Counted from the first letter of the stretch, positions 27,056-54,475 are shown. The stretch is DNA of 64,000 nucleotides from Eubacteriales bacterium (GCA_045653805.1 JAZOMF010000079.1:5327-69326), one strand, 5' to 3'. Notes: generated from the sequence alone by a model not told the origin. Numbers and translations: made by a program.

Positions 27056-28315
27056 ATGAGTGAAATAAATAATAGTGCAAAGACCGTTGCGGTCATTGGC
27101 GGCGGTGCTGCCGGAATGATGGCGGCGATACACGCGGCTTATATGGGGGCAGAGGTAATGCTCTTTGAGAAGAACGACCGCCTCGGTAAAAAGCTGAAGA
27201 TAACCGGCAAGGGAAGGTGCAACGTTACCAACGATTGCCCGACAAACGAGTTTTTGAATAACGTGCCCACTAATCCTCGTTTCCTTTACGCGGCTCTCAA
27301 CCGCTTTTCCACCTCGGATGCTATGGACTTTTTCGAGGGCTGCGGAGTGCCCTTGAAGGTGGAGCGAGGCAGACGAGTTTTCCCTGTGTCCGACAAGGCG
27401 GGAGACGTAGTCAAGGCGTTGAGCGACAGATGTCGCAACGTGGGTGTGCAGGTGATACACAATAAGATCACTGCTCTTGAAATAGAAGAGGGCAGAGTGA
27501 TAGGAGTTCGCACATGCGAGCGATTTTATGACTGTGACAGCGTGATAGTTTGTACGGGTGGTAAATCCTACCCCGCCACAGGCTCTGACGGCGATGGCTA
27601 CCGTTTTGCTCGTCAGGCAGGGCATACCGTCACCGAGCTTCGCCCATCTCTCGTGCCCATCGTTGCAGGTGGTAACCTTTGCCAGAGAATGCAAGGGCTT
27701 TCGCTGAAAAACGTTGCTCTTAAAGTGGTTCGCCGTGACAGTGGTAAGGCGGTCTACGATGATTTCGGTGAGATGATGTTCACCCACTTTGGTATGACAG
27801 GTCCCATGGTGCTTTCCGCCTCGGCGCACATTCCCGATATTGAAAAGGGGATATACGATGCGATCATAGACTTGAAGCCCGCCCTTGACGAGCAAGCAAT
27901 GGATACTCGCATAAGAGCAGACTTTGCGAAGTACAATAATAAGGATTTCGTCAATTCATTGGGCGATCTGCTGCCCTTAAAGGCAATCGAGCCTATAATC
28001 GACCTCTGCGGAATAGATCCTCGCAAAAAGGTCAACTCGATCACAAAGGAAGAGCGTAGAAAACTGCTTGAAGCTATTAAATATATGAGAATACCCCTCC
28101 AGCGCTTCCGTCCAATCGACGAAGCGATAATCACCAAGGGCGGCGTTGCCGTTACGGAGATCGACCCAAAAACCATGGCATCTAAGTTGGTATCGGGGCT
28201 CTATTTTGCAGGCGAGGTCCTCGACCTCGACGCCTATACCGGCGGCTTCAACCTCCAGATAGCCTATTCCACCCCCGTCCTTGCCGGCGAGAGCGCAGGG
28301 GAGAGCGGTGCGTAG
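27056..28315 (+). CDS. HI0933/BaiN-like NAD(P)/FAD-dependent oxidoreductase
   Basis: It has VAVIGGGAAGMMAA, KLKITGKGRCNVTN, TGGKSYPATGSDGDGY and YFAGEVLDLDAYTGGFNLQ. I prefer the ATG at 27056, immediately after the rpiR stop codon. Confidence 0.8.
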   Translation: MSEINNSAKTVAVIGGGAAGMMAAIHAAYMGAEVMLFEKNDRLGKKLKITGKGRCNVTNDCPTNEFLNNVPTNPRFLYAALNRFSTSDAMDFFEGCGVPLKVERGRRVFPVSDKAGDVVKALSDRCRNVGVQVIHNKITALEIEEGRVIGVRTCERFYDCDSVIVCTGGKSYPATGSDGDGYRFARQAGHTVTELRPSLVPIVAGGNLCQRMQGLSLKNVALKVVRRDSGKAVYDDFGEMMFTHFGMTGPMVLSASAHIPDIEKGIYDAIIDLKPALDEQAMDTRIRADFAKYNNKDFVNSLGDLLPLKAIEPIIDLCGIDPRKKVNSITKEERRKLLEAIKYMRIPLQRFRPIDEAIITKGGVAVTEIDPKTMASKLVSGLYFAGEVLDLDAYTGGFNLQIAYSTPVLAGESAGESGA

Positions 28316-28326
28316 CACCGCAGTTC

Positions 28327-28492
28327 TATTCGCCTTTGGCGAGTGATATTGCTTCGCAGTGATATTCGTCTTGCGACGAGTGATATTTGCTACGCAAGTT
28401 TTGGCGGCGAATAGAATATCACTGTTCGGCAACGACGAACAATATCACTTTCCAAAAGGAAAATATCACTGTTGCGAAGCAACAATATCACT
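28327..28492. repeat. Array of a 9-mer: three AGTGATATT followed by four copies of its exact reverse complement AATATCACT, interleaved with short variable hairpins
   Basis: AGTGATATT occurs at 28342, 28358 and 28379. AATATCACT occurs at 28415, 28441, 28462 and 28484. A 9-bp outer pairing CTATTCGCC (28327) / GGCGAATAG (28406) is also present. The array is intergenic between the flavoprotein gene and cmk. Confidence 0.85.
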
Positions 28493-28557
28493 TTTCAATT
28501 ACCCCTACAAATCAAAATTTGAAGAATTGAAATTATAAAATAAAGGAACAAACAATC

Positions 28558-36741: not shown

Positions 36742-36825
36742 TATTTTGTCCTCCAAAAAGGATATTTTTTGCCAAGCCAAAAATACGAGCTTGTAAGCTT
36801 AATATGGCTTTATCCTTTAAATGGT

Positions 36826-36990
36826 TATTGAAATTCGCTCTGCGAATTTCTACCTTAACGCTTCGCTTGCGAAGCATTTCACTCGCGCATAGCACGAATT
36901 TCACGTTTTGTAAAACAAAACATTTCACATTTGGGTTGGCTTTGAGCCAACCCAAATATTTCACTGTAATACTTCGACACAACCGAAATA
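36826..36990. repeat. Array of perfect or near-perfect variable hairpins punctuated by four copies of ATTTCAC
   Basis: ATTTCAC occurs at 36876, 36898, 36922 and 36958. Intervening palindromes include GAAATTCGC-TCT-GCGAATTTC, GCTTCGC-TT-GCGAAGC, GTTTTG-TAAAA-CAAAAC and ATTTGGGTTGGC-TTTGA-GCCAACCCAAAT. The array is intergenic between ugl and kduD. Confidence 0.8.
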
Positions 36991-49212: not shown

Positions 49213-50307
49213 TTACTTTTCCTCAATGCAAGATACTATTTCATTGTAGAGTGCGGTGGTTTCGTCTGCGTTTTCAAGGGCTATAACTACAACTTGCTGG
49301 TCCTTGAGATGCAATACGATTGCGGGAGCTTTTCCGCGGTATGCGTAGCTGGTGTAATATCCAAGCTCGGAATTTTTGAAGCCGCCGAGGAGAAGCTTTG
49401 CAGAGTCAAAGCCGTTGATCTTACTACCTGAAACACCGTCCTCGTCAAGCTCGACGGAGGCAATATCGGAGTAATTTACTGTCAGCTTGCCGCTGAAGGT
49501 GGAGCTTAAGGTGAAGCCATCATTACCTTTTGCAACATCGATCTTACCCGTGAACATTATGACCGCCAAGAAGATGACCAGCGCCGCAATAAGGACTGCA
49601 ACAGTTACCTTGCTTGCAGGCTTAGCGGATGCCGCTTTAACCTGCTCGTCTGTGATCTTTCCTTCATCTAACTGCTTTTTGTAGAGCCTGTAAGAATATA
49701 CCATAGGAACAACGACTACTACAAGCAGGAGCGCGGGCAGGAAAATCATAAGATAAACGTCGGTGAAGAAAACGCCGAGAAGGGAAGCAAGACCGCAAAT
49801 GACCCAAAGCTTGCCTGCGAAACGGTGGGTAGCCGTCCAGTTTTCTTCACTTGCCAAAGCCCACTTGATCTTGATACCAAACGTGCGGTTAAGAGTGGAT
49901 TTCGGCAATATATTACCGATAACTATCAAACCGATACCAATAAGAGGCGCTATGATAAGATTTACGTTAACCTCCATTCCAAAGGCGGTGGCGTAGATTA
50001 TGCCGTTTACGTAAAGAGAAAGCACGGGCATTATCCAAAAGGTCGCATTTAAGATCTTGGGATTTTGATTTCTGGTCTTGTTGTCAAGGCAGGTAACAAG
50101 AATGCAGACCCAATTCATAATGAGCAGAATAATGGGCAGAGCAAATACCGCGATCGCCGTGCCTACGTATCCGTCAGGCTCTCCGCTGATACCCCAATGA
50201 ATCGCCATCTGCTCGGGCAGCTTATCCCAAACTGTTACTCCGAAAATGATGGGGAGCAGGGTTATTAAGGATGAAATTATAAGCTTCCATTTATTCTTTC
50301 TTATCAT
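49213..50307 (-). CDS. SdpI/YhfL-like membrane protein (DUF1648-type N-terminus) with an extra C-terminal soluble domain
   Basis: The N-terminus LPIIFGVTVWDKLPEQMAIHWGISGEPDGY and the later NRTFGIKIKWALASEENW are typical of SdpI-family proteins. The gene overlaps the upstream ArsR gene by 17 nt. Confidence 0.65.
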   Translation of the reverse strand: MIRKNKWKLIISSLITLLPIIFGVTVWDKLPEQMAIHWGISGEPDGYVGTAIAVFALPIILLIMNWVCILVTCLDNKTRNQNPKILNATFWIMPVLSLYVNGIIYATAFGMEVNVNLIIAPLIGIGLIVIGNILPKSTLNRTFGIKIKWALASEENWTATHRFAGKLWVICGLASLLGVFFTDVYLMIFLPALLLVVVVVPMVYSYRLYKKQLDEGKITDEQVKAASAKPASKVTVAVLIAALVIFLAVIMFTGKIDVAKGNDGFTLSSTFSGKLTVNYSDIASVELDEDGVSGSKINGFDSAKLLLGGFKNSELGYYTSYAYRGKAPAIVLHLKDQQVVVIALENADETTALYNEIVSCIEEK

Positions 50308-50599
50308 TACCGTTATCTCCTTTCAATGTTGCTATCCATAGCATTATGTCCTCGAGGACCGAGGTATTCAGCTCGTAGTAAATAAATTTACCCTCGCGTG
50401 TGTCACGGATAAGGTCGGCATCCTTCAGCACAGATAAATGCCGAGAGATGGCGGCTCCCGTAATATCAAAGTGCGCCACGATCGCGCCGGCAGAAAGCCT
50501 ACCGCCTTTGAGCAGATCGAGAATTTCCCGCCTGACAGGATCGGATAACGCACGCAAAGTGTTTTGTATCGCCACGTTTATAACCTCCTCATTTAACAT
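50291..50599 (-). CDS. ArsR/SmtB family (SdpR-like) transcriptional repressor
   Basis: It has the winged-helix pattern LSDPVRREILDLLKGGRLSAGAIVAHFDITGAAISRHLSVLKDADLI. Confidence 0.85.
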   Translation of the reverse strand: MLNEEVINVAIQNTLRALSDPVRREILDLLKGGRLSAGAIVAHFDITGAAISRHLSVLKDADLIRDTREGKFIYYELNTSVLEDIMLWIATLKGDNGNDKKE

Positions 50600-50617
50600 T
50601 TAACCTAAGTGTTAAAT
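50591..50617. promoter_or_regulatory. Candidate operator: a perfect 8-bp inverted repeat overlapping the ArsR start codon
   Basis: ATTTAACA (50591-50598), 11 nt, then TGTTAAAT (50610-50617). Its position is consistent with autoregulation, but no experiment or search supports this. Confidence 0.3.
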
Positions 50618-50734
50618 ATAGTATACCATGATTTTATGCGTTTGTCAATAGGGGAGTGAAGGAAATTTTGAAATTCAAGCAAAAAATTAAAAATTCAAGC
50701 AAAAAAAGAGAGGCATAAAGCCTCTCTTTTGCTA

Positions 50735-50816
50735 TGGTCGAAGTGGCGGGACTCAGAACCTTTACACAAAATTGCAAGCAATTTTGGTGGTAGATTCAAA
50801 TGGCACCGTACGATCC
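50735..50816 (-). repeat. Unit 1 of a tandem 82-nt element whose 3' end imitates the 3' end of tRNA-Pro, flanked by a terminator hairpin
   Basis: Read on the minus strand it ends ...AGGTTCTGAGTCCCGCCACTTCGACCA, against GGGTTCGAATCCCGTCACACCGACCA in tRNA-Pro. It is nearly identical to unit 2 except in the loop of its internal 7-bp stem. Confidence 0.75.
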
Positions 50817-50858
50817 AAGAATAACAAAAAGAGAGGTGTAAAAACCTCTCTTTTTGCT

Positions 50859-50940
50859 TGGTCGGAGTGACGGGATTCAGAACCTTTACACAAAATTGCG
50901 GGCAATTTTGGTGGTAGATTCAAATGGCACCGTACGATCC
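50859..50940 (-). repeat. Unit 2 of the tandem element resembling the tRNA-Pro 3' end
   Basis: The minus strand reads GGATCGTACGGTGCCATTTGAATCTACCACCAAAATTGCCCGCAATTTTGTGTAAAGGTTCTGAATCCCGTCACTCCGACCA. It lies 124 nt from unit 1 and 122 nt from the true tRNA. Confidence 0.75.
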
Positions 50941-50980
50941 AGGCATAAAAAAGCAGAGGCATCAAGCCTCTGCTTTTTTA

Positions 50981-51057
50981 TGGTCGGTGTGACGGGATTC
51001 GAACCCACGACCTCTTGGTCCCGAACCAAGCGCACTACCAAACTGTGCCACACCCCG
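50981..51057 (-). tRNA. tRNA-Pro (anticodon CGG), CCA encoded
   Basis: The minus strand reads CGGGGTGTGGCACAGTTTGGTAGTGCGCTTGGTTCGGGACCAAGAGGTCGTGGGTTCGAATCCCGTCACACCGACCA. The anticodon arm is CTTGG-TTCGGGA-CCAAG. By eye there is one G-A mismatch in the acceptor stem. Confidence 0.8.
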
Positions 51058-51197
51058 AGAAATAAAATTGTTCAAAATAATCGCGCACTAACTGTTGTGA
51101 CTAAGGTTCAAGCTTCGTCGCGCGCAACTCGCTTTCACCAAGTCACTGCCACTCCTTATTGCTCCCTTCATCCGCCACCGGCGGCGGTCGCAAACGT

Positions 51198-51218
51198 CCC
51201 AAACTGTGCCACACCCCG
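51198..51218 (-). repeat. Duplicated 5' fragment of tRNA-Pro, about 140 nt upstream of the intact gene
   Basis: AAACTGTGCCACACCCCGA occurs at both 51040-51058 and 51199-51218 on the plus strand. This corresponds to tRNA positions 1-19. Confidence 0.75.
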
Positions 51219-51441
51219 AAAACAGTATTAACGCGAACAACAGTTAGTATAACACATCGCAAAACTTTTGTCAAGGGGGTGGAGAGGGAAAAAAGCAAAT
51301 AATGAGGCTTTTTTATTGGGTTTATTCTGAAAACTGACCGAAAAGGTCAGCCGTTCACAAAATTTTGGTAATTAAACGCCTCATATTAAATATATATAAT
51401 AATAATTTAAAAAAATTTAAAAAATATATATTAAAAATAGG

Positions 51442-51470
51442 TTGTAAAAAGCACAAAAATGTAGTATAAT
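51442..51470 (+). promoter_or_regulatory. Sigma-A type promoter for the A-T-R / plsAR operon
   Basis: TTGTAA (51442-51447), a 17-nt spacer, then TATAAT (51465-51470), within a very AT-rich region. Confidence 0.55.
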
Positions 51471-51523
51471 GTATGATGGTTTTATATGTCCGCGCGAATT
51501 TGCACTTGAATGGAGTTTAAATT

Positions 51524-54475
51524 GTGAAAAAAGTTCTTCGTGATCTTCAGGAATATATGAGCGAAATTGCCAAGGCGTACGGCAAAAAAGATGCCTATCG
51601 CTACTTTGTCAATGACCGTGTAGTATCCAAGACATTTATCGAATTTGAAAGAGACGTTAATGCTGTCGCTTCTTATTTCGTTAAAAATAGATGGCACGGT
51701 AAGCACATCGCTATAATTGGATCAACAAGCTACCCTTGGGTGGTGACCTTTTTGGCGGTTGAGTGCAGTGGTAACGTGGTTATCCCTATCGACAAAATGC
51801 TTCCTGAAGTTGACATGATCAATCTCTTGGCAATGGGTGATGCAGACGTTGTGTTTCTTGCTGATGAGTTCGCGTCTATGGCAACTCCTATAAGCGCGGC
51901 AGAGAATAATGTTCAGGAAATCATCTGCTTCACCGGAAAAAAATATGAAGAATGCCTTGCTACAGAGCCTGTTGATCTGCCCAAGATCGATCCCGATGCT
52001 ATGGCAGAGATACTTTTCACTTCGGGCACGACCGGCGTGAGCAAGGGTGTTATGCTTACACAAAGAAACATTGTTTCCAATATTTGCGACATATATAGAA
52101 TGGACTTCAGACAGAATCTTGATTGTGATGCTATCGTTATGTCGGTTCTTCCCATTCACCATACCTTTGAGTTGACGGTGGACAACCTTGGCGTGCTTTA
52201 TTGCGGTGCGACCGTATGCATTAACGATAAGCTCGAGAATATCGTTGCAAACCTTAACCTTTTCAAGCCATCCGTAATTTTGGTAGTTCCCGCAATAGCA
52301 GAGGCTTTCTACAAAAAGGTTATGGACGGACTTTCCAGCGGAAGCAATAAGAGAAAGATTGCCTTTGCCCGCAAGTTAAGCAAGATATGCAAGTTCTTTA
52401 AGATCAACGCCAAGCGCAAGATATATAAGTCGGTTCTCAAGAAGTTTGGCGGCAATCTTACTAACGTTATCGTCGGCGGCGCAGCACTTCGCCCCGAGAT
52501 AGCCGAGGCATTCGACGAGTTTGGTGTAAATATGTATCAGGGCTACGGACTTACCGAGTGCGCCCCCCTTATTTCTGCAAACTATCCGGGGTGCAATAAA
52601 TTCGGTTCTGTGGGTAAGCCCGTAGAGTATATGGACGTGAAGATCGTTGACGGCGAGATCATGGTAAAGGGCTCAGGCGTGATGTTGGGATACTACAAGA
52701 ATCCCAAGGCAACTGCAGAGGCTTTCACCGAGGACGGATATCTCCACACAGGAGACCTGGGCTGGCAGGACGAGGATGGCTACCTCTACATAACAGGCCG
52801 CTCCAAGAACCTTATAATTCTCGACAACGGAAAAAATATATACCCCGAGGAGCTTGAGTCTCACATCGGAAATATCGTAGGCATCAAGGACGTAATGGTT
52901 TACGAGAACAAGGGTAAGATCTGTGCCGCAGTTCTCCCCGTCAACGCCAATGACGAAAATCTTATCAAGCAGATAAAGCAGGGAATAAAGGATTTTAATG
53001 CCGAACAGCCATCCTATAAGAGAATAGTTTCTATTGTCTTTATTTCCAAGGAGTTCCCCAAGACCACTACCTTAAAGATAAAGCGTAAGGAAGCGGTTAA
53101 GATGATAAAGGAGCAGGTGGTTAAAAAGACCGTGGCTCACGTTCCTCCCACCACTCGCGAGCAGAAAAAGATAGTTACAGCCTACGAAAACGTGCTCGGA
53201 TGCAAGAACATCGGCATCAAGGATGATTTCTTCGACCTTGGAGGCGATAGCCTTGCAGCACTTGAGGTGGCATCAATCATCGGCGTTCCTGCGCAGGAGC
53301 TTTACGAGAATCCCACCGCAGAGCTGCTTGAAAAGGTGCTTATCGAGGCAAAGGTCAAGGCAAAGACAGAGAGAAGCGGCGTTGACGTAAACGAGCTTAT
53401 CAAACACAAGGCTAATATAGATAGCAATCAGGAGGTCGAGCGCATACTGTTGACGGGTGCGACGGGATACCTCGGTGCCCACATTCTCCGTGAGCTTATG
53501 CGCCGTGGAATCAAGGTTCGTTGCCTTGTGCGAAGTGAAGAAAAGCTTCGACAGGTGCTTGAATATTATTTCCCCAAGGAATATAAAAAGTTCAATTATA
53601 AAGTGGTAATCGGTGACATAACCCAGCCCAAACTCGGTCTTACCGATGAAAAATACCACAGTCTTGCGAAAAAGATTGATATGGTTATCCACACTGCGGC
53701 AAACGTAAGCCATGCGGGTCACTACGAGGAGTTTGAGCTGACCAACGTCATAGGTACACAAAATGTTATTGATTTTTGTAGTTTTGCAGGCGCGGTGCTT
53801 CAGCATACCTCAACCGCCAGTGTTCACGGTGCGGGAACGGTTGCGCAGAAGAATCCCGACGCGATTTTTGACGAGTTCTGCCTCGACGTAGGTCAAAATT
53901 ACGTTCAGAACGTTTATATTCACTCAAAGTATAAAGCAGAGGAGAGAGTTCTCCTTGCAAGAGAAGAGGGACTTCGTGCAAACATTTTTCGAATCGGTAA
54001 CCTCACTTGGCGCGCAAAGGACGGAAAGTTCCAGAAAAATGCAGGATCCAACGGGTTCCTTGGTCGTTGTCGCGGAATTTTGCAGGTAGGCGTTTATTGT
54101 AGCGAGATCGACGAATACCCCATCGACTTTACAGCAGTAGACGAGTGTGCAGACGCCTTTGTTCGTCTTTCCCTCAACCACAAGGTTAATAACATTTATC
54201 ATATGTACAACCCTGACCTTTTCTCAATCGGAAGGTTTGGTAAAAAGTGCTTTGTGAAGTTAAAGAAGGTATCCCACGAGGAATTTGAAAAGAAGGTAAG
54301 AGATAATATCAGCGAAAAGGATGTTGCAATTCTTTCCTTCTACAGTACCATAGCATCTGAATCTGCCAACGTGCCTATGAGCAACGATTTTACCGTTAAG
54401 GAGCTTAAAAAGCTCGGGTTTAAGTGGTCTAAGATCAAGCTCAAATACCTCAGCTTCATGAGAAAGCTCAAATAA
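51524..54475 (+). CDS. Tridomain fatty acyl-AMP/CoA ligase, carrier protein and thioester reductase (carboxylic-acid-reductase-like, ElbD-like N-terminal architecture); GTG start
   Basis: It has adenylation motifs ILFTSGTTGVSKGV, QGYGLTE, TGDLGWQDEDGYLYITGRSKN and GKNIYPEELE. The carrier motif is FFDLGGDSLAALE. The reductase has LLTGATGYLGAHILREL and YIHSKYKAE (YxxxK). Confidence 0.85.
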   Translation: MKKVLRDLQEYMSEIAKAYGKKDAYRYFVNDRVVSKTFIEFERDVNAVASYFVKNRWHGKHIAIIGSTSYPWVVTFLAVECSGNVVIPIDKMLPEVDMINLLAMGDADVVFLADEFASMATPISAAENNVQEIICFTGKKYEECLATEPVDLPKIDPDAMAEILFTSGTTGVSKGVMLTQRNIVSNICDIYRMDFRQNLDCDAIVMSVLPIHHTFELTVDNLGVLYCGATVCINDKLENIVANLNLFKPSVILVVPAIAEAFYKKVMDGLSSGSNKRKIAFARKLSKICKFFKINAKRKIYKSVLKKFGGNLTNVIVGGAALRPEIAEAFDEFGVNMYQGYGLTECAPLISANYPGCNKFGSVGKPVEYMDVKIVDGEIMVKGSGVMLGYYKNPKATAEAFTEDGYLHTGDLGWQDEDGYLYITGRSKNLIILDNGKNIYPEELESHIGNIVGIKDVMVYENKGKICAAVLPVNANDENLIKQIKQGIKDFNAEQPSYKRIVSIVFISKEFPKTTTLKIKRKEAVKMIKEQVVKKTVAHVPPTTREQKKIVTAYENVLGCKNIGIKDDFFDLGGDSLAALEVASIIGVPAQELYENPTAELLEKVLIEAKVKAKTERSGVDVNELIKHKANIDSNQEVERILLTGATGYLGAHILRELMRRGIKVRCLVRSEEKLRQVLEYYFPKEYKKFNYKVVIGDITQPKLGLTDEKYHSLAKKIDMVIHTAANVSHAGHYEEFELTNVIGTQNVIDFCSFAGAVLQHTSTASVHGAGTVAQKNPDAIFDEFCLDVGQNYVQNVYIHSKYKAEERVLLAREEGLRANIFRIGNLTWRAKDGKFQKNAGSNGFLGRCRGILQVGVYCSEIDEYPIDFTAVDECADAFVRLSLNHKVNNIYHMYNPDLFSIGRFGKKCFVKLKKVSHEEFEKKVRDNISEKDVAILSFYSTIASESANVPMSNDFTVKELKKLGFKWSKIKLKYLSFMRKLK

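Follow-up and report, generated by a model that had tools for sequence, protein, structure and literature searches.

We analyzed a stretch of DNA of 64,000 nucleotides from an Eubacteriales bacterium (GCA_045653805.1 JAZOMF010000079.1:5327-69326; hereafter, the window), on whose minus strand a tRNA-Pro(CGG) gene is followed by two 83-nt units, unit 2 (50859-50941) and unit 1 (50735-50817). These units belong to a multi-copy family of nearly palindromic repeats that stand behind tRNA genes, that share a centre built around a hairpin with paired changes on its two sides, and whose inverted arms both derive from the 3' terminus of the tRNA gene at which they stand. As far as can be judged from sequence, the family is a new variant of the tRNA-linked repeats (TLRs) of Escherichia coli, a kind of repeat that is itself unexplained, and it shares all those features of the TLR definition that could be tested. 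The reading that we favor, with a chance that we consider to be about even, is that of a tRNA-linked repeat and recombination hotspot that acts at the level of DNA, with a copy number governed by unequal crossing-over and with transcription, at most, by read-through. All positions given below follow the numbering of the whole window and refer to the minus strand, the region covered being 50690-51280.

Distribution and anatomy of the repeat family

A BLAST search with unit 2 against the genome from which the window comes (1.76 Mb in 99 contigs) returned partial copies on 8 further contigs. When read in context, the copies of this genome share a common centre, consisting of ACC-AAA, a hairpin and TTT-G(Y)GTAAAGGTTC(T)GA, and then carry the 3' end that belongs to the tRNA gene directly upstream, be it that of Gln(CTG), Arg(CCG), Arg(ACG), Arg(CCT), Glu(CTC), Leu(CAA), Ser(CGA), Tyr or Pro(CGG). 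From 12 copies, we built a covariance model of the family (R1), which found 15 matches in the same genome, lying behind at least nine tRNA loci with 1-3 per locus; unit 2 scored 84.4 bits and unit 1 83.1 bits. Of 36 genomes from this genus, 29 also had matches to the model, with 1-23 matches per genome and well over a hundred copies in all, while a search of 24 other families of the same order yielded no match. The hosts of the family are uncultured gut Clostridia of a single genus. When the genome collection was scanned for an exact pattern, 19 matches came up, most of which are attributable to chance.

The link to tRNA genes is seen throughout the genus. Among the 108 distinct copies for which the context was fetched, 75 have a tRNA gene on the same strand within 320 nt upstream, at least 14 tRNA types carry copies of the family, and first units begin 33-45 nt past the CCA of the tRNA. 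As the same architecture is found in independent assemblies of 29 related genomes, the units are neither a product of chance nor an artefact of assembly, the latter being an outcome that a preliminary description of the locus, made from the window's sequence, had named as fatal to its proposal. Some arrays in relatives consist of abutting units with a period of 63-72 bp and no terminator between them.

The element is about 83 nt long and nearly palindromic, with a conserved centre of about 45 nt held between inverted, tRNA-specific arms. The centre follows the consensus ACC, a perfect hairpin of variable sequence, and GYGTAAAGGTTC(W)GA. In 57 distinct sequences, 99.4% of the cells of the central hairpin are paired, all 9 pairs display two-sided changes (106 cells), and G.U pairs account for only 7 of 503 cells. 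No shuffle out of 500 was as good, and slid registers were only 34-57% paired. The central hairpin is a real, maintained structure. In unit 2 of the window, the left arm is followed by the centre ACC-AAAATTG-CCCG-CAATTTT-GTGTAAAGGTTCTGA and by a 19-nt box, AATCCCGTCACTCCGACCA. Unit 1 is 94% identical and has the loop CTTG instead of CCCG on an unchanged stem, AAAATTG/CAATTTT, just as the preliminary description had stated.

The right arm begins with a T-arm-like sequence, GGTTC(W)GAATCC, mostly with one extra base in the loop, and continues with the T-stem 3' strand, the acceptor 3' strand, the discriminator base and the CCA of the tRNA. Its box thus equals the last 19-20 nt of the adjacent tRNA, from the T loop to the CCA. 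In about a third of the 75 copies, 18-20 of the 20 final nucleotides match the tRNA at which the copy stands, the others being decayed or carrying inserts. In the window, the last 19 nt of unit 2 match the tRNA at 18 of 19 positions, so that the earlier claim of a near-copy of the tRNA 3' half with its CCA at the ends of the units is upheld. The box of unit 1, AGTCCCGCCACTTCGACCA, differs from that of unit 2 by 3 substitutions, and the left arms of the two units are identical and hold no compensating changes.

The further claim that the 5' two-thirds of the units are unrelated to the tRNA does not stand. The left arm, i.e., about the first 30 nt, represents the same tRNA's T arm and acceptor 3' strand in decayed, reverse-complemented form, and aligned significantly to the reverse complement of the 3' 30 nt of its own tRNA in 23 units. 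The correspondence runs from ATTCGAACCCAC to ATTTGAATCTAC for the tRNA-Pro left arm and from ATTCGAACCCCG to ATTCTAAACTCG for the tRNA-Gln left arm. At some loci, decay has gone the other way, such that the left arm is a perfect complement of the tRNA end and the right arm is the decayed one, as seen at tRNA-Arg(CCT) of the window's own genome and at two loci in relatives (L104 and L085; G, C and L numbers are our labels for genomes, contigs and loci). We also considered that a unit might represent a whole tRNA lacking the anticodon loop; this was dropped, as what the left arm holds is the T arm with the acceptor 3' strand in reverse complement, and not the 5' acceptor strand with the D arm.

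Two variations on this plan were noted. A longer, second type of centre, with GATGAGAACC, hairpins and GCGCAAATRTAAAGGTTCWGA in this order and followed by a tRNA 3' end, is found in the window's own genome (C8:580-745) and at L069, L072 and L075; it stands behind tRNA-Pro(TGG) in the own genome and behind tRNA-Pro(CGG) in some relatives. A third, small module of about 55 nt (TTACGTTCGC..CGCTCAC..CCGAGTTTTGC..GCAAAACGTCGCC) is inserted in the right arm of several elements, between GATTC and the T-stem 3' strand (L090, L092 and L098, as well as C90:150-230 and C37:9300-9375 in the own genome).

Transcription, folding and conservation of the units

The preliminary description had proposed that the units are independently terminated small-RNA genes, and had named tRNA-derived decoys as a further option. 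The part of the small-RNA proposal that concerns terminators holds, as each unit has one; the part that concerns independence does not, as the promoter scan revealed no promoter-like site on the minus strand from 50981 to 50700, i.e., within the units. With no promoter of their own, the units would be transcribed only upon read-through of the tRNA terminator. Neither ARAGORN nor the Rfam tRNA model, even when relaxed to E <= 10, called the units, only the real tRNA-Pro being recognized; at the place of the anticodon arm, units have a hairpin of 7-10 bp with a 3-4-nt loop. At the same threshold, whatever else in Rfam matched the units, or the module that lies upstream of the tRNA, did so only by chance and in a terminator-like manner.

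Folding is neutral with respect to strand, with mean energies of -25.41 kcal/mol for the sense and -25.40 kcal/mol for the antisense strand, and with the sense strand folding better in 52 of 108 copies. For unit 2 of the window, the fold of the whole unit reaches a z value of only -1.5 relative to shuffles, the outer stem being weak. Taken together, the lack of a promoter and of a tRNA score, the strand-neutral folding, the modest z value, the uncompensated changes in the box of unit 1 and the terminator-free arrays of some relatives argue against independently transcribed small RNAs selected for their structure.

A milder version of an RNA role should nonetheless be weighed, namely that read-through of the tRNA terminator yields functional small RNAs from the units, in the manner of RrA, RrB and RrF of E. 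coli, with the tRNA-like end serving processing or stability and the centre being the working part. Each unit lies between two terminators and downstream of a strong tRNA promoter, the copies appear to be old and inherited with their locus, and, as a precedent, three TLRs of E. coli yield small RNAs through terminator read-through (PMC8144298). The unpaired bases of the centre are conserved across 14 tRNA types and many species next to a maintained hairpin, which could mean function, although the search as such picks out copies in which the motif is retained. There is also a bias seen on the sense strand only: when units were compared with their cognate tRNA, we counted 58 changes of the C>T and A>G kinds and 30 of the G>A and T>C kinds, the bias being present in both arms in spite of their opposite base composition, with the caution that these counts come from related copies, and are hence not independent. 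Such a bias fits deamination of the non-template strand under transcription, or tolerance of G.U pairs in a fold of the sense strand. The precedent, the conserved centre and the bias all weigh against the reading of the family as a DNA-level repeat. Set against a role as read-through RNAs, however, are the missing promoters, folding that is equally good on both strands with G.U pairs being rare, the weak outer stem in the window, the box changes without compensation in the left arm, and the arrays in which terminators between units are missing. In addition, mean pairwise identity is 0.63-0.82 for the inner part and 0.60-0.83 for the preceding terminator; the inner part is thus not clearly better conserved than the terminator beside it, and selection is not demonstrated by this comparison. 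On balance, we consider functional read-through RNAs to be possible but doubtful, and infer that the units would have no function as RNA.

A guide-RNA-like reading, with a scaffold and with the tRNA 3' end as guide, was considered separately and dropped, as such a guide would also be matched by the inverted copy within its own unit. Among the neighboring open reading frames (ORFs) that were examined, none coded for TnpB, IscB or Cas proteins, although no dedicated search for these was made.

Copy number, cargo and related systems

To follow the history of the copies, we compared only their inner parts, with the tRNA-specific ends trimmed and with neighbors taken from outside of the array to which a unit belongs. 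In 49 of 75 cases, the nearest neighbor was a copy at the same tRNA type; copies standing at other tRNA types of the same genome never took this place. Inner parts thus group by tRNA type across genomes, meaning that the copies travel with the tRNA locus, and no sign of recent jumping between loci was seen. In the closest relative (G015), the orthologous tRNA-Pro(CGG) locus holds a single unit instead of the two of the window, and the two terminators of G015 correspond to those that follow unit 2 and unit 1 in the window. The difference amounts to the gain or loss of one unit with its terminator between 19-nt boxes. The variation in copy number that the preliminary description had proposed to look for in related strains is thus present. 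Other relatives have, at tRNA-Pro(CGG), a unit with the compensated hairpin AAATTTG/CAAATTT, AAATCCG/CGGATTT or AAAACCG/CGGTTTT, while the remaining ones have a different, longer centre, the inverted arm alone, or nothing.

Copies of the element also border accessory genes, which are found in several places between the tRNA and an element or between two elements. In the window's own genome, a lipoprotein gene lies between two tRNA-Gln units, and an ORF that resembles deaminases of the cytidine/blasticidin type, a label that relies on sequence motifs only, lies behind tRNA-Ser(CGA). The latter ORF is missing from the tRNA-Ser(CGA) locus of G015 and is found elsewhere in 5 relatives, about 4 kb from uvrC. 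Lipoprotein genes serve as cargo in G029 as well, and the 3' end of a large ORF resembling serine recombinases, so labeled by a look at its sequence only, adjoins one array in that genome. The largest cargo is an island of 11.8 kb in G016 (L090, G016:C13 1270-13150), which codes for a Fic/DOC protein, the type I restriction-modification proteins HsdM, HsdS and HsdR, AbiH and a lipoprotein; it is delimited by repeats of CACCTCCACCA and by elements, with a tRNA-like 3' end on one side and a distal copy of CACCTCCACCA with an element on the other, and contains no integrase. The cassette genes carry their own promoters. The boxes are therefore places of DNA insertion, with elements persisting with or without cargo. 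When the tRNA-Gln locus of the own genome was compared with that of G015, no clean empty site that would define the cargo boundaries was found.

On the DNA-level reading, recombination at the tRNA 3' end, or template switching there, would have given rise to the element and kept it up, and the element would be inherited together with its tRNA locus. Unequal crossing-over between 19-nt boxes would add or remove units along with their terminators, which would account for the 124-bp period of the array and for the presence of two units here when the closest relative has one, and the same boxes would mark where accessory genes and islands enter in other genomes. The recombination mechanism is what we infer from these arrangements, and several results weigh against this reading. 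No enzyme partner for the elements was found: the own genome has 8 tyrosine recombinases, none of which adjoins an element, and no integrase gene lies beside the copies examined. Y1_Tnp proteins (of the RAYT type) are absent from G029, G020, G027, G034 and G017, each of which has 16-23 copies, and GIY-YIG proteins other than UvrC are rare and do not track the elements, with essentially UvrC only being present per genome.

These searches bear directly on the idea that the units are gene-less relics of a GIY-YIG homing nuclease, or of a hairpin element of the REP/RAYT type, that once cut or copied tRNA genes. An ORF with weak similarity to GIY-YIG proteins does lie about 500 nt behind an element in G016, and the own genome has RAYT-like genes and many hairpin arrays; yet with non-UvrC GIY-YIG matches that are few and unrelated in distribution to the elements, and with Y1_Tnp lacking where copies abound, we judge this origin to be very improbable. 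REP and BIME sequences resemble the family in being small, multi-copy, intergenic hairpin repeats but differ in that REPs are not tied to tRNA 3' ends and copy no flanking genes, and in that Y1/RAYT proteins do not co-occur with the family.

The T loop is a classic place of crossover for integrases. Another proposal of the preliminary description was that the units are stacked att scars of repeated integration and excision at tRNA-Pro. In this case, integrase-bearing elements would have entered and left the T loop and 3' end of the tRNA repeatedly, each event leaving a displaced 3' end and a piece of an arm. The link to the tRNA 3' end stands: the direct repeats are present, the identity of 19-20 nt begins in the T loop, accessory genes precede the distal repeat in some genomes, islands and an element bearing a serine recombinase adjoin such boxes in relatives, and copy number differs between relatives, all of which is also expected of attL/attR sites and the accretion of islands. 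Against scars stand the single, folded, co-varying centre common to at least 14 tRNA types, and the inverted copy of the tRNA end in every unit, which scars do not explain. Moreover, no integrase gene was found in or beside the cargo examined, the islands of relatives included. In the window, there is no island between the repeats, the boxes being separated by merely some 40 nt of terminator, and the grouping by tRNA type across species speaks for old residents and not for repeated fresh insertions. Plain att scars are, accordingly, an unlikely explanation in our view.

A more speculative possibility, which we also hold to be unlikely, is that the unit might be a folded, attC-like recombination site with arms matched to the tRNA 3' end, acting as a cassette platform that is anchored on the tRNA, that has no integrase or is served in trans, and that collects accessory genes with their own promoters, such as the lipoprotein genes, the deaminase-like gene and the defence islands. 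Like the elements, integron attC sites are long and imperfectly palindromic, their feet are conserved, and their terminal hairpin varies in sequence with its pairing kept; both mark the boundaries of single-gene cassettes in arrays. The family differs from them in being anchored to tRNA genes, in having outer arms that copy the tRNA and in holding cassettes with their own promoters. No GTTRRRY core was seen, and no search for an integron integrase was made. If such a platform were real, the two units of the window would be empty cassettes, and the TLRs of E. coli might be explained along the same lines.

The closest counterpart of the family remains the TLRs. These have been known in E. coli since 1978, amount to 22 sequences at ten loci with 1-5 per locus, lie behind tRNA or rRNA genes, each end in 18-19 bp equal to the 3' end of the upstream gene, and were without a known function until rrA, rrB and rrF were shown to give small RNAs by read-through (PMC8144298). 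They include the 178-bp rtT/rttR repeats of tyrT-tyrV (Egan and Landy 1978; Rudd 1999; as reviewed in PMC8144298), and PMC8144298 offers no account of their origin. In both systems, the repeats directly follow a tRNA or rRNA gene and share its strand, end in 18-20 nt equal to that gene's 3' end, and occur as 1-5 units in tandem at about ten loci per genome, often bracketed by terminators. We also read the tyrV-rttR region of strain K-12 (L110, NC_000913.3 1286700-1287330) in the same manner. There, too, identity starts in the T loop (AATCC...; AATCCTTCCCCCACCACCA), the 5' half of a pseudo T arm, AAGGTTCGA, precedes the box, with GGTTCGA and ATCC being split by a G+C-rich, hairpin-rich insert of 68 nt, and 10 nt of the box are repeated in inverted orientation upstream, GGGGAAGGAT.

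The two systems are not the same in all respects. In the T loop, the units of the window hold one extra T at the place of the 68-nt insert of the E. coli tyrT units, they present no homology to RtT (no match to the Rfam RtT model at E <= 10 within 50000-52000), and they are shorter (83 nt plus a terminator), strongly palindromic and endowed with a co-varying central hairpin. Expression is known for three TLRs of E. coli, whereas the present family is described here from sequence alone. An unrelated sequence family in a distant phylum thus obeys the rules of the TLRs, namely a position behind the gene, a last 19-20 nt equal to the gene's 3' end, a boundary in the T loop and tandem copies, and this suggests a general process at the 3' ends of stable-RNA genes. 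The inverted arm, the co-varying hairpin, the insertions of cargo and the inheritance with the locus provide comparative material beyond that of E. coli. Annotators should take such units neither for tRNA genes nor for simple phage scars.

The tRNA-Pro(CGG) locus and its upstream module

The order of parts that the preliminary description gave for the minus strand agrees with the sequence itself and with the results of ARAGORN, Tandem Repeats Finder and the promoter and terminator scans. Transcription would start at a sigma-70-type promoter (51246-51274), TTGACA-17 nt-TATACT with a TG, which matches the consensus at 11 of 12 positions and would drive the leader, the tRNA and any read-through. 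Downstream lie a spare copy of tRNA-Pro positions 1-20, CGGGGTGTGGCACAGTTTGG (51199-51218), a folded, G+C-rich module of 108 nt (51091-51198), the short sequence TAGTGCGCG (51082-51090) and an A+T-rich spacer of 24 nt, followed by the intact tRNA-Pro(CGG) gene (50981-51057), which encodes its CCA, is called by ARAGORN and scores 60.7 bits with the Rfam tRNA model. A terminator hairpin with a T run, T0 (50945-50980), read in the sequence, separates the tRNA from unit 2, and gave only weak, hairpin-level matches to unrelated RNA families in Rfam. A second terminator hairpin, T1 (50818-50858), whose orthologue stands directly behind the tRNA in G015, separates unit 2 from unit 1, and a third, T2 (50697-50730), with an 11-pair stem and a T run, ends the array. 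Tandem Repeats Finder reported a period of 124 with 2.5 copies and 85% matches over 50701-51005, the repeating unit of 124 bp being a terminator plus an 83-nt element.

At the single position at which its end departs from the tRNA of the window, unit 2 has the same base as tRNA-Pro(CGG) in the relatives examined (CACTCCG). The tRNA of the window instead has the acceptor 3' strand CACACCG, giving a G4.A69 mismatch, which is either a real mutation or an error in the assembly consensus.

The spare copy has the same letters as 51057-51038 and covers the acceptor 5' strand, the 5' side of the D stem and the D loop as far as its GG. The module is inserted right after this GG, and TAGTGCGCG then resumes the interrupted D arm on its 3' side (tRNA positions 21-28), where the spare copy ends. 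The preliminary description had taken the 5' duplicate as a mark of past insertion, and this is borne out by the module sitting in its D loop; the match of TAGTGCGCG to the D arm, like the genus-wide, TLR-like family, had gone unmentioned there. As the module lies between the promoter and the tRNA, it would form part of the leader of the tRNA precursor. On the DNA-level reading of the family, the upstream duplicate would be a separate event of the same general kind, in which the module splits a spare tRNA 5' piece behind the D-loop GG, the result being transcribed as tRNA leader.

The 108-nt stretch is a member of a second multi-copy family, with copies in many relatives and on contigs C8, C72, C24 and C99 of the own genome. 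Its invariant parts are GAGTGGCAG and CAACAG, and its predicted fold has 24 pairs, 16 of which show two-sided changes, with few G.U and a single A.C; no match to it was found in Rfam, and a scan of viral contigs returned one chance match, in a coding region. The module follows the D-loop GG of a spare 5' piece at tRNA-Pro(CGG), tRNA-Pro(TGG) and tRNA-Ser(CGA) in the own genome and at tRNA-Ser(TGA) in G016. Every spare 5' piece matches its own tRNA and runs on for 8-12 nt past the module, the D-arm continuations equivalent to TAGTGCGCG being TAGCGCGCG on contig C8 and ACATAACGGGGC on contig C72. Variants of the module are also found inside the downstream units behind tRNA-Ser(GGA) on C24, and a near-identical unit with a module variant lies on C99, where no tRNA gene was called. 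Other relatives have spare tRNA-Pro 5' copies that are full of unrelated perfect hairpins, or have none.

Further arrangements were noted in the surroundings of such sequences. At L080 (G017:C239, 30-330), the module stands ahead of a gene resembling those of tyrosine integrases, a label that derives from its first residues, MANKRRPQGDGTIRKRSDGRWEARI..., and is flanked by a direct repeat of 37-40 nt that spans the ribosome-binding site together with the gene's first 26 nt. At L062 (G035:C85) and L078 (G023:C30), the 5' half of a tRNA-Pro(CGG) gene, positions 1-37, is followed after about 200 nt by a second, complete tRNA-Pro gene, whose stems differ in L062 and which is a few bases away from the first in L078; this looks like gene replacement at the anticodon loop. 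Arrays of diverse, perfect mini-hairpins, many with C-GNA-G triloops, and spaced by TATATCATCA and, farther on, by its complement TGATGATATA, sit after elements or after the tRNA terminator in the own genome (C1:19870-20080, C1:20780-21000, C55:2960-3150, C68 behind tRNA-Ser, and C99:1900-2000), and are of the same kind as the arrays at 28305-28500 and 36781-36990 of the window. Finally, a 45-nt module consisting of a promoter and a 5'-untranslated region (5'-UTR), GTGTGATATAATAAACTCACCGATAAATAAGAATTTGACGAGGAG, is found at C68:1920-1965 (minus strand) and, with 93-100% identity, at 20 or more loci in relatives, ahead of different genes; three of the loci lie about 1-1.4 kb from tRNA-like matches on the same contigs.

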